Positions 14,594 through 31,345 of a DNA stretch of 47,311 nucleotides are shown one piece after another (the stretch's first letter is position 1; the number at the start of each line of letters is the position of its first letter). The translations under genes were made by a program, and so were the position numbers. The stretch is from UHGV virus genome UHGV-1541059, one strand, 5' to 3'. The notes beneath the pieces were generated by a model. The model had not been told where the DNA came from, did no database searches, and saw only the letters and a program-made list of their open reading frames with translations. This DNA comes from a virus.

Positions 14594-15133
14594 ATGAAAA
14601 ATGATTACGGCGGCAGCCATACGCCGAAAGAAATAAAGGATTTATGGCAAACGCCAAAACCCGCTTTTAGAGGAATGGATCGTGAATTCGAATTCGTCGC
14701 TGATGTGGCGGCAAACAAGGCAAACGCATTAGTTCCGCGATATATAACAGAAGAAATGGACACGTTGCATTATCCGTGGGGAGCGGTGGCAATGCCTGGT
14801 GAGTATGTCTGGCTTAATCCACCATATTCTAATCCGGGGCCATTCGTTGATAAAGCGGCGCTTGAACACAGCCGAAACCATATCGGATGCGTAATGTTAT
14901 TGCCCGCTGATATTTCTGTTAACTGGTTTATGAACGGCGTGGAGACGGCAAACGAATGCCGATTAATTACGCGCGGGCGGCTGGCGTTTATCAATGCTGC
15001 GACGGGTAAACCAGCAAGCGGAAACAATAAAGGGAGTTTGTTCTTGATCTGGCATCCACGATGCAGACATGAATGTATTTTCACGCAGATAACACGTAAA
15101 GAGCTATATGCAAGAGGTGCAGAAAATGAGTAA
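14594..15133 (+). CDS. dam: Phage DNA N6-adenine methyltransferase (Dam-like)
   Basis: WQTPKPAF ... DVAANKANALVPRY ... catalytic NPPY (WLNPPYSN) typical of the phage N-6-adenine methyltransferase family. Confidence 0.85.
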   Translation: MKNDYGGSHTPKEIKDLWQTPKPAFRGMDREFEFVADVAANKANALVPRYITEEMDTLHYPWGAVAMPGEYVWLNPPYSNPGPFVDKAALEHSRNHIGCVMLLPADISVNWFMNGVETANECRLITRGRLAFINAATGKPASGNNKGSLFLIWHPRCRHECIFTQITRKELYARGAENE

Positions 15134-15617
15134 AGCGGCTGAATTGCTAAGACTTGCGGCTGAAACTATTGAGGCAAGAGGGGAACAAAACGGATACGAT
15201 CGAAAAGAAGAAAAATCAGCGCCAAAAATAGCCACTATTTACAACGCTAAGAAGGGGACAAATCTAACCCCGCTTGATGTATGGGATCTACTAATTTGTC
15301 TCAAGGAGGGGCGATTAGAGGCCATTTTAAGCAATGGTAGCGACCCGCTCGACACTCTTATAGACCTTATTGCTTATAACGCGCTAAAAGCGGAGCAAAT
15401 ATTAACGGAGCGGGAGGAAGAACAAAGAAAGAAACAGGCTGTTTTTGATATGCCGTTAAATTGCGGCTGCAAGAAAACATCAATACCAGGCGACTTGATC
15501 GCCGCCAGCGGGATAACGCTAAATGGTAGCCTTTCAAATAGGCTTGATGTGAAGTTTGACAACGAATCACTATTACGCGCGGCGGGGTATCATAAGAATG
15601 GAAAGGGTGACAATTGA
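15126..15617 (+). CDS. Hypothetical protein (163 aa)
   Basis: Start at MSKAAELLRL with AGAGGTG RBS, overlapping dam stop. Confidence 0.45.
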   Translation: MSKAAELLRLAAETIEARGEQNGYDRKEEKSAPKIATIYNAKKGTNLTPLDVWDLLICLKEGRLEAILSNGSDPLDTLIDLIAYNALKAEQILTEREEEQRKKQAVFDMPLNCGCKKTSIPGDLIAASGITLNGSLSNRLDVKFDNESLLRAAGYHKNGKGDN

Positions 15618-16101
15618 CAGGTTATTAGCCTGCGTTTATGTCGCCGTTTTCGTGATCATCAATCTTATTGTTAACCATTGCGGCCCGTGGGTAATTCCGA
15701 TCACCACGGTAGCCGCCGTGTGTGTCAATATGATGATCCGTGACTTCCTGTTATATGACGGCGGCTTGAGATGGTCGGCTACAACATGCGCCGCCGCTGG
15801 CGCAATCACTGTACTGATAAATTACGACGCCGGAATGGTGGCGATCGCGTCATTTGTCGCGGTTGTTTCCGGTGCGCTTATTTCTGGCGGCGTTTACCGG
15901 GTTTTGCCTGGTGACTTTGATTCTAAACGTTGGCCTGCAAATATAGCGTCCGCCATAGGTGATGCGTTAATTTTCCCGACGCTATCGTTTATGGCATTTA
16001 TGCCGGAAATATCAGCTATGCAATTCATCTCAAAAATGGCAGCGGTAACGGTGATTACTATCATCATGCGCCGCTATTTCACGTTTGAGGGTAGAAAATG
16101 A
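15598..16101 (+). CDS. Polytopic inner-membrane protein; weak resemblance to VUT/YhhQ-type transporters
   Basis: 4-5 predicted TM helices; start at MERVTIDRLL; sits between the two methyltransferase genes. Confidence 0.45.
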   Translation: MERVTIDRLLACVYVAVFVIINLIVNHCGPWVIPITTVAAVCVNMMIRDFLLYDGGLRWSATTCAAAGAITVLINYDAGMVAIASFVAVVSGALISGGVYRVLPGDFDSKRWPANIASAIGDALIFPTLSFMAFMPEISAMQFISKMAAVTVITIIMRRYFTFEGRK

Positions 16102-16862
16102 GCGGGCTTAGAAATTGGGTGGTGTGGTCGCTGTATGACGGCAGCGGGTACGCTGTTAAAGATTGGGCGGACGCTGGTTATAAATGTTATTGCTTCAACT
16201 ATGACGGCGCTAATCACGGTGATTATGACGGGGTAAAAATAATTCATCCAAATATTGAATATGTTAACGTCTGGATTGATAGCCATTTTCTGGTAATGTT
16301 CTCCCCTGAATTGTCTGTATATCCAGATCCTGACATTATCCTGGGCTTTCCTCCATGCGACAATCTCGCCGTTTCAGGCGCTCGCTGGTTCGCTGATAAA
16401 CGGAAAAAAGACCCTGACTTCCAGGTGAAGGCGGCGCATAACGCAAAACTGGTAGAAAAACTGGCGAATATGCATAACGTGCCGTGGATGGTGGAAAATC
16501 CGGTGGGCGCACTGTCAACGTTATGGCGTAAACCGGATTTTATCTTCAATCCGTGCGCTTACGGTGGCTACCTGCCGGAAGATGATAAGCATCCCGCTTT
16601 CCCGGAATACATTGCCGACCGCGACGCCTACACGAAGAAAACTTGTATTTGGTGCGGGAATGGATTTAAGCAGCCGCTATTCCGTCCTGTGCCGATGCCA
16701 GATGAATGGGAAGACAGTAAGCAGCACGCGAAGTTAGGCGGAAAATCAAAGCGAACAAAGATGATCCGCTCACTAACGCCGCGTGGCTTCGCCCGTGCTG
16801 TATTCCTGGCTAACGACCGGGCCATCAATCGTACTACGCTCAACCGCGTTTTGCCGGACTGA
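16098..16862 (+). CDS. Compact DNA cytosine-5 methyltransferase-like protein
   Basis: Motif IV-like GFPPCDNLAVSG and motif VI-like MVENPVG in canonical order; only 254 aa. Confidence 0.5.
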   Translation: MSGLRNWVVWSLYDGSGYAVKDWADAGYKCYCFNYDGANHGDYDGVKIIHPNIEYVNVWIDSHFLVMFSPELSVYPDPDIILGFPPCDNLAVSGARWFADKRKKDPDFQVKAAHNAKLVEKLANMHNVPWMVENPVGALSTLWRKPDFIFNPCAYGGYLPEDDKHPAFPEYIADRDAYTKKTCIWCGNGFKQPLFRPVPMPDEWEDSKQHAKLGGKSKRTKMIRSLTPRGFARAVFLANDRAINRTTLNRVLPD

Positions 16863-18222: not shown

Positions 18223-18401
18223 AAAACGAAGTTAAAGATCTGCAAATAGATATTCAGCGCGACGAGCGTGATTTAGAGACGGTCCGACAAATCCAGGCTT
18301 TCCACATGCGCGAATTACTTGCGCTGAAAGAGTTCGAAAGAAAGCTGGTGCAATCCATTTCTGATCGTAAACGGCTGGCGGCACGTTATGAGGGCAAATA
18401 A
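18219..18401 (+). CDS. Hypothetical small protein (60 aa)
   Basis: Coupled between rusA and Q. Confidence 0.4.
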   Translation: MKNEVKDLQIDIQRDERDLETVRQIQAFHMRELLALKEFERKLVQSISDRKRLAARYEGK

Positions 18402-19123
18402 TGAATTTAGAATCCATTCTAAAATTCCACTTTCCTAAATCACCGCGATTATCTGACGAAAGCCGGGGCACGTCCCCGGACGCTCTTAATACGACGGATG
18501 CGCTAACCGCTGCGGGTATGGCGCAATCGCGCGTAGAGCTTGGTTATAGCGCTTTTTTAGGGAAGATGGAACTATCACAAGCCGAAAAACACAGGGCCGT
18601 AGTTTTGCTTACAGAGCGTTTAAGGGCTATGGCGAAAGATTACGAATACGTGATGGAGTTAAACGAGGATCAGCGCAATGAACTTATTATTCTTGTTGCC
18701 GTTTTCGCGTTTCGGGATTATTGCCAGAGTGCCGCGACGGAAAAAACTTGCATGGAGTGCGGCGGATATAAATTTACGTTTGATGAATACGGTGAAAAAC
18801 ACCTTTGTAAAAAATGCAAGGGGCATGGGACAGTTCGCAATCATTGTAAACAATGCAAGGGTCGTGGCGAAGTACCGGATAAAACAGCCAGCGAAGCGGC
18901 GGAAATGCCAGTATTCAAAACGTGCCAGCATTGCGGCGGGCGCGGGTACTCGCGTTTCCCGGTAGATCTCGTCCGGCAGGCGGTTAATCAGCTTGTTTTC
19001 CCGGTAAGCCGATCAACATGGTGGAAGAAATACCGGGCTTTCTATGAAGACGCCATTGCTGAATTGTTCAAAGAAGAGGCGCGGGCTGACAACGAAATTA
19101 AACGAGTGACGCGGGGTGAATAA
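18401..19123 (+). CDS. Q: Lambda-type late antiterminator Q
   Basis: N-terminus MNLESILKFHFPKSPRLSDESRGTS resembles lambda Q MRLESVAKFHSPKSPMMSDSPRAT as recalled; zinc-binding Cys pairs; ...GYSRFPV... Confidence 0.8.
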   Translation: MNLESILKFHFPKSPRLSDESRGTSPDALNTTDALTAAGMAQSRVELGYSAFLGKMELSQAEKHRAVVLLTERLRAMAKDYEYVMELNEDQRNELIILVAVFAFRDYCQSAATEKTCMECGGYKFTFDEYGEKHLCKKCKGHGTVRNHCKQCKGRGEVPDKTASEAAEMPVFKTCQHCGGRGYSRFPVDLVRQAVNQLVFPVSRSTWWKKYRAFYEDAIAELFKEEARADNEIKRVTRGE

Positions 19124-29893: not shown

Positions 29894-29971
29894 AAACCAT
29901 CCCACAATCACCCACAAGTTTTTCTATTTTTCGCGTAGCAACGCGTAAACATGTATTCAGGAGTAAACATT

Positions 29972-31345
29972 ATGCCATCCAATTTAGAATTGGCGGTTAA
30001 TGCTGCCTTGTCACAACGCCAGGCGGCCTTTGCCCGCTATGCAGCCGCTAACCCATTCACTATGGGGATCGATGCTAAACGTAACGCCGCGTGGAGTGAA
30101 TACGGATTCAAAGAAGAGCTTACCTATACTGATCTATATAAGCTGTATCGTCGCGGTGGTATTGCTCACGGGGCCATTGAAAAAATTATCACCACATGCT
30201 GGCGCGATAGCCCGGTGCTGATAGAAGGCACTGAAGACGAGAAAGCGGAAACGGAAACACCCTGGGAAAGAGAAATAAAGAAACAATTCGATAACCGATT
30301 CTGGCGTGTTATTGCTGAATGCGATCGCCGTCGCCTGGTTGGTCGTTATGCCGGACTATTGATTCACGTCAAAGATAACCAGCCGTGGGATCGTCCAGTA
30401 ACAAAAGGGGTAGGCATCGCTAAATTCACTCCTGTATGGGCTGGCGCACTAACACCAAAGGACTTCGATGAAAACCCGGATAGCGATAACTACGGTCTGC
30501 CGACATGGTGGGAATACAAAGAACGCATCAACAGCAAGACCATCGCAAGGAAAATACATCCAGACCGGATATTTATCTTTGGTGACTATTCTGATGATGC
30601 TATCGCTTTCCTTGAGCCATCCTATAACGCTTTCGTTTCGCTGGAGAAAGTGGAAGGTGGTAGCGGTGAGTCATTCCTGAAGAACGCCGCACGCCAGCTT
30701 GCTATCTCATTCGACAAAGAAATTGACTTCCGCTCACTGGCTGCAACGTATGACTGCGACGTCACAGAGTTACGCGAAAAATTCAATGAAGCCGCAGCGG
30801 AAATGAATAAAGGTAATGATGTGATGATGGCGTTACAGGGCGCAACAGTAAGCCCGCTGGTAACTGCCGTATCTGACCCGTCCGCAACCTATGATGTAAA
30901 CCTGCAAACCGCCGCCGCTGGTATCGACATTCCAACGCGTATCCTAGTTGGGAATCAACAGGGTGAACGAGCATCAACTGAAGATCTCCGCTATTTCAAT
31001 AACCGATGCATGACCCGCCGCCAGGAAATCGGAGGCGAGCTTGAAGAACTATTCCGCAAACTGGCAGATCTACGCCTTACCAGTGAGCCACGCGACATAT
31101 CAGTGCTATGGGATGACCTTAACGCTATGACCAAAGCCGAACTACTGGAAGCGGCACACAAGATGGCGCAAATCAATCAGGCATGTCTTGCTACTGGTGA
31201 GCAGGTATTCAGCGGTGATGAGATCCGCGAAGCTGCCGGATATGAAGGGCCAACGCAGGAAGTAGAAGTGGAAGACGAGGAAAACGATGATGAAGGTGAA
31301 GAAAATAATCAGGCGAATACCTCCAGCCGCGATAATGCCATCTAA
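29972..31345 (+). CDS. Portal protein
   Basis: About 457 aa following TerL; acidic C-terminus; AGGAG RBS before ATG 29972 (track start 29951). Confidence 0.7.
   Translation: MPSNLELAVNAALSQRQAAFARYAAANPFTMGIDAKRNAAWSEYGFKEELTYTDLYKLYRRGGIAHGAIEKIITTCWRDSPVLIEGTEDEKAETETPWEREIKKQFDNRFWRVIAECDRRRLVGRYAGLLIHVKDNQPWDRPVTKGVGIAKFTPVWAGALTPKDFDENPDSDNYGLPTWWEYKERINSKTIARKIHPDRIFIFGDYSDDAIAFLEPSYNAFVSLEKVEGGSGESFLKNAARQLAISFDKEIDFRSLAATYDCDVTELREKFNEAAAEMNKGNDVMMALQGATVSPLVTAVSDPSATYDVNLQTAAAGIDIPTRILVGNQQGERASTEDLRYFNNRCMTRRQEIGGELEELFRKLADLRLTSEPRDISVLWDDLNAMTKAELLEAAHKMAQINQACLATGEQVFSGDEIREAAGYEGPTQEVEVEDEENDDEGEENNQANTSSRDNAI

Follow-up and report, generated by a model that had tools for sequence, protein, structure and literature searches.

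Four overlapping genes of an mEp021-type temperate coliphage encode two predicted orphan DNA methyltransferases and a YhhQ-like membrane protein, probably as an accessory operon and not as one pathway

The viral genome UHGV-1541059, analysed here over its whole length of 47,311 nucleotides (the window), carries at positions 14594-16862 four overlapping plus-strand genes of an mEp021-type temperate coliphage. We consider it likely that these genes represent an accessory operon with coupled translation, located in the early-right (nin-like) part of the phage genome, in which two putative DNA methyltransferases, a DUF6378 protein and a predicted transporter are encoded side by side without constituting one pathway. 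The features of this cluster are as follows:

14594..15133, + strand: predicted phage Dam-type N6-adenine DNA methyltransferase, 179 amino acids (aa; PF05869, TIGR01712, phrog_111, NPPY)
15126..15617, + strand: DUF6378 protein, 163 aa, or 169 aa from an alternative start at 15108 (PF19905, phrog_9871, phrog_474)
15598..16101, + strand: predicted short, divergent YhhQ/VUT-family (COG1738) membrane protein, 167 aa (phrog_4899; clade without DpdA)
15556, + strand: alternative TTG start of the membrane protein, giving 181 aa
16098..16862, + strand: putative compact DNMT3-like, 'phage Dcm-like' C5-cytosine DNA methyltransferase, 254 aa (phrog_757, motifs)

Each gene runs into the next. The junction between Dam and DUF6378 is an overlap of 8 nucleotides (nt) at 15126-15133 (ATGAGTAA), with the DUF6378 ATG located within the final Dam codons; the DUF6378 and membrane-protein genes overlap by 20 nt (15598-15617), the membrane-protein ATG preceding the DUF6378 stop; and the C5 gene starts upon the stop of the membrane-protein gene (ATGA at 16098-16101). 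The ratio of nonsynonymous to synonymous substitution rates (dN/dS), computed against mEp021-like relatives at dS 0.3-1.0, was 0.06-0.10 for Dam, 0.10-0.14 for the DUF6378 N-domain, 0.035-0.06 for the membrane protein (0.035-0.10 over all comparisons) and, at useful divergence, 0.07-0.17 for the C5 gene. Since these ratios are low in all four cases, the genes are functional and not chance open reading frames (ORFs). The original prediction, made from the letters of the window alone, had placed four ORFs here; all of them are present at these coordinates on the + strand, and the dN/dS values show them to be real genes.

The distribution of the genes among other phages indicates how closely they belong together. 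Among 80 viral loci with a C5 gene, 24 are mEp021-like and have the full four-gene order, one of these being a deletion variant. The 56 loci outside the mEp021 group include six with Dam and five with DUF6378, and none with the transporter or a DpdA-like gene. The reciprocal sample, 80 viral loci encoding transporter relatives, contains the C5 gene in two cases and Dam in three. The order Dam-DUF6378-transporter-C5 occurs only in mEp021-like phages and in L169, a more remote relative in which it is kept at 53% and 64% protein identity. In the deletion variant (L091 3657-4004, IMGVR_UViG_3300045988_049781), recorded on seven contigs, the N-terminus of Dam is fused to the C-terminus of the transporter in a 115-aa protein (P0129) that keeps the last ~80 transporter residues; DUF6378 is lost and the C5 gene is intact. 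C5 and transporter loci are thus mostly independent and a deletion variant exists; therefore, the parts are separable. Comparative genomics does not support a link between the transporter and the methyltransferases. The earlier suggestion that the membrane protein takes up a precursor for these enzymes is not supported: the C5 loci outside the mEp021 group lack the transporter, its usual partner DpdA is absent here, and the deletion variant keeps only the C5 gene.

By its sequence, the first gene can be assigned to the canonical T1/HP1-type phage Dam enzymes, as had been proposed from its NPPY motif. The protein matches PF05869 over its full length (170.3 bits, cutoff 28.1, E 3.8e-50) and the NCBIfam equivalog TIGR01712 (137 bits, cutoff 97.05), both far above the cutoffs, and the catalytic NPPY lies within WLNPPYS. 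From the T1/HP1 family, we take its target to be GATC.

The fourth gene is best described as a compact DNMT3-like C5-cytosine DNA methyltransferase, a class assignment based on conserved motifs and family comparisons. Its product contains GFPPCDNLAVSG and ENPVG, and the proposed motifs are motif I (YDGSG, 13-17), motif IV (PPC, 85-87) and motif VI (ENP, 133-135), to which K180/K181 and a motif IX-like IRSLTPRG (223-230) can be added. It matches phrog_757 (E 1e-87) and belongs to a family of 2371 detected homologues of 225-260 aa. Across 36 family members G15/S16, P85-P86-C87, E133-N134-P135, T220 and several residues within I223-G230 are invariant, as are the family-specific residues N34, H40, G41, Y43 and H50. 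Hence, the C5 motifs IV and VI read from the sequence earlier withstood alignment, including the catalytic Cys. The protein has a Rossmann-like methyltransferase fold, as do the C5 DNA methyltransferases of solved structure. The equally early remark that little room is left for a target-recognition domain also proved apt, with ~35 residues between the strand at 182-187 and IRSLTPRG. The segment IRSLTPRGFARAVFxAN resembles motif IX (RxLTPRE), and most members end 2-5 residues after it. Against PF00145 (cutoff 22 bits), two relatives score high enough, P0096 with 28.5 bits and P0021 with 24.7 bits, in both cases over profile positions 4-94 of 324 only; the family profile matched PDB entries at no better than E ~0.5, all of them C5 methyltransferases and over motifs I-IV. 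Alignment with E. coli Dcm by hhalign recovered motif IV alone, and 'Dcm-like' is therefore to be understood as a functional label, not as a statement of orthology.

Of 50,697 phage records searched with tblastn, 1516 contain a member of this C5 family, chiefly records of Escherichia, Klebsiella and Salmonella phages. In the BASEL collection, its members are annotated as 'Dcm-like C5 cytosine methyltransferase' (e.g. bas01_0030 of Bas01), and the Bas01 copy and the window protein share 58% identity over 234 aa. The dcm gene of K42, a KarlJaspers-like phage, measures 711 bp; its protein was modelled on DNMT3A, with C82, E128, K175 and K176 assigned (10.1101/2023.08.16.553469). K42 Dcm was reported to place 5-methylcytosine (5mC) on multicopy single-stranded DNA, as determined by liquid chromatography-mass spectrometry with a catalytic mutant as control and with a requirement for the CCWGG site, and to trigger retron Ec86, escape mutants being devoid of the dcm gene (10.1101/2023.08.16.553469). 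In the 236-aa family member P0096 the Cys, Glu and Lys-Lys are counted at 82, 128, 175 and 176, the same numbering as in K42, and the equivalents in the window protein are C87, E133, K180 and K181. We infer that K42 Dcm belongs to the window C5 family.

These features bear on a reading in which the four genes form one non-canonical modification pathway, the transporter importing a precursor for attachment to DNA by DUF6378 and/or the C5-like enzyme; in a variant of it, the C5-like enzyme would use an alternative cofactor, as CmoX does with carboxy-S-adenosylmethionine. Overlapping starts and stops suggest co-translation, the gene order is conserved in the divergent L169, relatives of the transporter belong to DNA hypermodification modules, and the C5 family combines invariant residues of its own (N34, H40, G41, Y43, H50) with the lack of a recognisable motif X. 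However, the 1516 phage records with the C5 family are to be set beside 0 of 56 sampled loci outside the mEp021 group with the transporter, and the characterised C5 homologue makes plain 5mC. The window protein has FPPC where CmoX has SPPC, and neither a phage CmoA nor a ligase appeared in the annotations of relatives or in the PHROG scan. Furthermore, the deletion variant retains the C5 gene alone, and the partners vary within the transporter clade (a MazG-like protein, an endolysin-like protein, or phrog_2510 paralogues with an N6/N4 methyltransferase). A single pathway is, in our view, distinctly improbable.

The third gene appears, through intermediate sequences and profile comparison, to encode a divergent, short member of the YhhQ/VUT family. 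The direct comparison with Vut_1 (PF02592) covers profile positions 6-149 of 152 and does not reach the gathering score (11.8 bits, cutoff 27.2, E 0.31), while the match to phrog_4899 is strong (E 1.4e-46). A word-indexed search found 12 relatives, and an exhaustive HMMER search started from a small alignment found 285. A Vut_1 match is present in 63 of 67 sampled relatives (best E 2.5e-15), one relative possessing a QueF-like domain. The family profile aligns with E. coli YhhQ in hhalign (93% probability, E 3.5e-7, 143 columns), and gp41 of phage CAjan, annotated as a preQ0 transporter, matches the hidden Markov model (HMM) of the family at 3.6e-17. Of the earlier description of this protein, the VUT/YhhQ-like character stood; the count of four to five transmembrane (TM) segments did not, six hydrophobic segments being visible by eye and six TM helices likewise being given in the mEp021 record. 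The family core is kept in the window protein (N22, G29, R48, D49, N115, D122, F131 and K146), with G29, R48, D122, F131 and K146 being invariant among the relatives.

The usual partner of this transporter is well defined. Roughly 75 of the 80 viral transporter loci have a ~245-aa gene on the same strand within ~0.5 kb, at a distance of 150 nt or less in 64 of them. This gene belongs to phrog_887 ('queuine tRNA-ribosyltransferase') and encodes a DpdA-like protein of short length; the pairing also occurs in the isolates Phleasolo, LHE71 and RCIP0319. It corresponds to a known 7-deazaguanine salvage arrangement (PMC6884629, PMC7544227). In the window, the DpdA-like HMM matched no ORF at E <= 1; the annotations of mEp021, MagusPhagus and a 96%-identical prophage list no DpdA; and the remaining large early ORFs, scanned against PHROG, matched only replication and lysis families and families without known function. 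The preQ0 genes (FolE, QueC/D/E) were likewise absent from the annotations of close relatives and from the PHROG scan of large early ORFs.

In a neighbour-joining tree (without bootstrap values), the window protein and P0132-P0135, all of phrog_4899, form one clade, the sister of which comprises DpdA-linked Drexlerviridae proteins. None of the five clade members has an adjacent DpdA gene, and the window transporter can be placed, on this phylogeny, in a small clade which lost DpdA. Its neighbours are DNA ligase and a MazG-like protein in one locus (L003) and DNA ligase and an endolysin-like protein in another (L174). The gene 3' of the transporter in L003 and L004 was considered as a copy of the C5 enzyme and rejected, as it encodes the MazG-like protein. 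In L170-L173, from another phage group, the transporter is followed by two phrog_2510 paralogues and then by an N6/N4 methyltransferase (L170 5516-7258); this is a second case of a transporter of this clade near a DNA methyltransferase. The phrog_2510 product has no assigned function.

The loss of DpdA leads to the question as to whether the transporter was repurposed, either for another solute or for a role in lysogeny or infection (nutrient uptake, exclusion, membrane effects). Throughout the clade, six positions conserved in the DpdA-linked relatives (H52, D96, N112, S114, S123 and W153) are replaced, including D96, which is present in E. coli YhhQ. Varying neighbours and strong purifying selection would also suit such a change. 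The core positions listed above are nevertheless all retained, and to our knowledge every characterised COG1738 member transports a queuosine precursor or queuine; we consider repurposing unlikely, though worth bearing in mind. A more specific new role for the DpdA-less clade, namely the import of a base or cofactor for an unrecognised modification made with DUF6378 and/or the C5 enzyme, or the reprogramming of host tRNA queuosine during infection or lysogeny, seems improbable. Were such import to occur, the four tightly coupled genes would have to be regarded as a functional unit and not as a mosaic. A transporter that is orphaned from DpdA yet strongly conserved is the remaining loose end of this analysis, and a modestly interesting one.

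The DUF6378 protein is a recurrent companion of Dam and C5 methyltransferases in unrelated phages. Its score against PF19905 is borderline, being exactly at the Pfam cutoff (27.1 bits for both), and a precomputed PF19905 match is present in all 120 listed homologues. The first ~105 aa, a helical N-domain, are near-invariant in the alignment of relatives, while the last ~60 aa (window 15441-15617) are mosaic among relatives otherwise 65-95% identical, with at least three unrelated versions of the tail; the 99-aa relative in L169 lacks it wholly. An AlphaFold2 model shows four helices at a mean predicted local distance difference test (pLDDT) score of 56.7, falling below 50 at the C-terminus, which is probably disordered. 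With this low-confidence model as query, Foldseek gave no PDB match at E <= 0.001, and a direct PDB sequence search returned no useful match. The idea that DUF6378 is a MazG-like pyrophosphohydrolase arose from the L003 locus, where a MazG-like gene adjoins the transporter; it was dropped after hhalign gave only a 12-residue local match at 2.5% probability. In L156 and L158-L161, where the transporter is missing, DUF6378 is found close to Dam and a compact C5 gene. Moreover, a 225-aa cytosine methyltransferase, a Dam of PF05869, ThyX and DUF6378 are encoded one after another among ORFs 57-61 of the Faecalibacterium phage vB_Fpr_FP01 (PMC13432834). This hints that DUF6378 generally accompanies the DNA-methylation and nucleotide genes of phages.

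Under the favoured reading, that of an accessory operon with separable parts, Dam and the C5 enzyme would act as independent orphan enzymes that mark the phage genome. Dam would produce N6-methyladenine, with GATC as the expected target from the T1/HP1 family, and the compact C5 enzyme would produce 5mC, with CCWGG as the expected target from its K42 homologue. The window contains 235 GATC sites against 167 ± 11 in dinucleotide-preserving shuffles, and 125 CCWGG sites against 52 ± 8; both sites are strongly over-represented and not avoided, an excess that probably reflects host-like oligonucleotide usage. Since these sites are so numerous, self-methylation would shield the phage DNA, both during replication and once packaged, from restriction systems with these targets, and this protection would hold whatever the Dam/Dcm status of the host. 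Anti-restriction methylation by the two phage enzymes is plausible. The cost of C5 methylation would be sensing by retron Ec86-type defences. The membrane protein would be a working YhhQ-family transporter, the ancestors of which may have served a DpdA 7-deazaguanine DNA-modification module until DpdA was lost in this lineage. Most likely, it would still import a 7-deazaguanine-type base (preQ0, preQ1 or queuine) or a related nucleobase, which could feed host pathways only, e.g. tRNA queuosine, and not phage DNA. The analysis itself establishes the identities, folds and family memberships of the genes, the lack of DpdA, the purifying selection and the co-occurrence counts; what we infer in this scheme are the target sequences, the anti-restriction role, and the substrate and purpose of the transporter.

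Several points weigh against this reading. The window C5 protein has no PF00145 match at E <= 1 and no Pfam, NCBIfam or PDB sequence match, and motif X (GN-type) is not recognisable by sequence across the family alignment. The membership of K42 Dcm in the family is based on gene length, exact residue numbering and the BASEL annotation, and the target sequences of both methyltransferases are taken from homologues. The host E. coli possesses a Dam, a Dcm and a YhhQ of its own, which leaves the advantage of carrying each phage counterpart unproven. Finally, the tight overlap of the four genes and the order kept in L169 may reflect a functional tie.

A score below the Pfam threshold and an unseen motif X would also be expected if the 254-aa protein were an inactive or RNA-directed C5-like relic and the transporter a decaying remnant of a transporter-DpdA cassette; the missing DpdA and the existence of deletion variants point the same way. 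Against such decay, dN/dS at dS 0.3-0.8 is low in both the transporter (0.035-0.06) and the C5 gene (0.07-0.17), dozens of phages keep intact reading frames, and the catalytic Cys and Glu are invariant in a family with a homologue active on DNA. We therefore find a relic hardly credible.

If the operon functions as proposed, mEp021-type phages would be expected to methylate both CCWGG and GATC by themselves. Retron Ec86 is triggered by the phage Dcm-like family to which their C5 enzyme belongs, and we therefore also predict that this defence senses mEp021-type temperate phages and prophages. The function of a YhhQ-type transporter without DpdA may, in turn, reveal what a phage gains from 7-deazaguanine uptake apart from DNA modification.

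The Escherichia phages MagusPhagus, mEp010, mEp554 and mEp021 are 85-96% identical in nucleotide sequence to positions 14594-16862, and this region was found in 35 of 5426 complete E. coli genomes, every copy being chromosomal. The mEp021 group consists of Nus-dependent, non-lambdoid 'mEpimmI' temperate phages (PMC11893012). The equivalents of the four genes are mEp021 gp30-gp33, labelled in that record as putative N6-adenine methyltransferase, hypothetical protein, putative membrane protein (6 TM) and putative cytosine methyltransferase; the cluster is thus already annotated in public records, and the methyltransferases are ordinary. Small early genes are located 5' of the cluster, and NinF, NinG, RusA and a Q-like antiterminator 3' of it. 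A promoter and terminator scan left the operon boundaries undefined.

Some further observations concern the same phage group. On its left arm, beside NinB, mEp021 encodes a third DNA methyltransferase (N4/N6 type, 246 aa; mEp021_05, L181 2836-3573). NinB of the window is located at 2461-2889, and the 96%-identical prophage (L088) has merely a 228-bp hypothetical ORF at the position of this methyltransferase. As mEp021 possesses the third enzyme and its close relative does not, the methyltransferase set varies within the group. The same prophage is integrated beside ogt and adjoins a truncated AbgT-family transporter gene (L088 5379-6822), which suggests that it integrated into, or beside, that gene. 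The equivalents of a 464-aa protein at window positions 29951-31345 are annotated in conflict, as a portal protein in the mEp021 record and as 'anti-CBASS protein Acb1 family protein' by the Prokaryotic Genome Annotation Pipeline (PGAP) in the prophage (L088 35321-36694). The Q-like antiterminator (240 aa, window 18401-19123) contains four CxxCxGxG-type repeats (CMECGGYK, CKKCKGHG, CKQCKGRG and CQHCGGRG) resembling the DnaJ zinc finger, and its homologue in L169 gives faint matches to the Pfam family DnaJ_CXXCXGXG.

Comparison with known systems places the four genes as follows. The window Dam is like the T1/HP1-type enzymes (PF05869, TIGR01712) in HMM match and NPPY motif, with no notable difference. 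The membrane protein appears homologous to YhhQ (COG1738) and to the transporter of the phage YhhQ-DpdA modules, such as that of CAjan (gp41 with gp35), sharing the short phage form of ~160 aa. In contrast to these modules, the window phage is without DpdA, FolE and QueC/D/E, its transporter falls into a separate phrog_4899 clade, and the flanking genes are instead DUF6378 and the C5 methyltransferase. CmoX (PDB 8yf3), a phage C5-carboxymethyltransferase, has SPPC and an Arg where motif X otherwise has its Asn, and its partners are the phage proteins CmoA and CmoY, whereas the window protein has FPPC, and neither CmoA nor a ligase was seen in the annotations of relatives or among the large early ORFs scanned against PHROG. 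The identity to the catalytic domains of DNMT3A and DNMT3B is only 13-16%; the window protein is devoid of their regulatory domains and ends right past the motif IX-like helix, with motif X unrecognisable. The closest counterparts are the Dcm of K42/KarlJaspers and the Dcm-like proteins of BASEL, with which the window protein would share its family, its size class (229-254 aa), its DNMT3-like character and equivalent catalytic residues. It differs from them in having an additional C-terminal tail of 15 aa and in being encoded within a four-gene operon of a temperate, mEp021-type phage.

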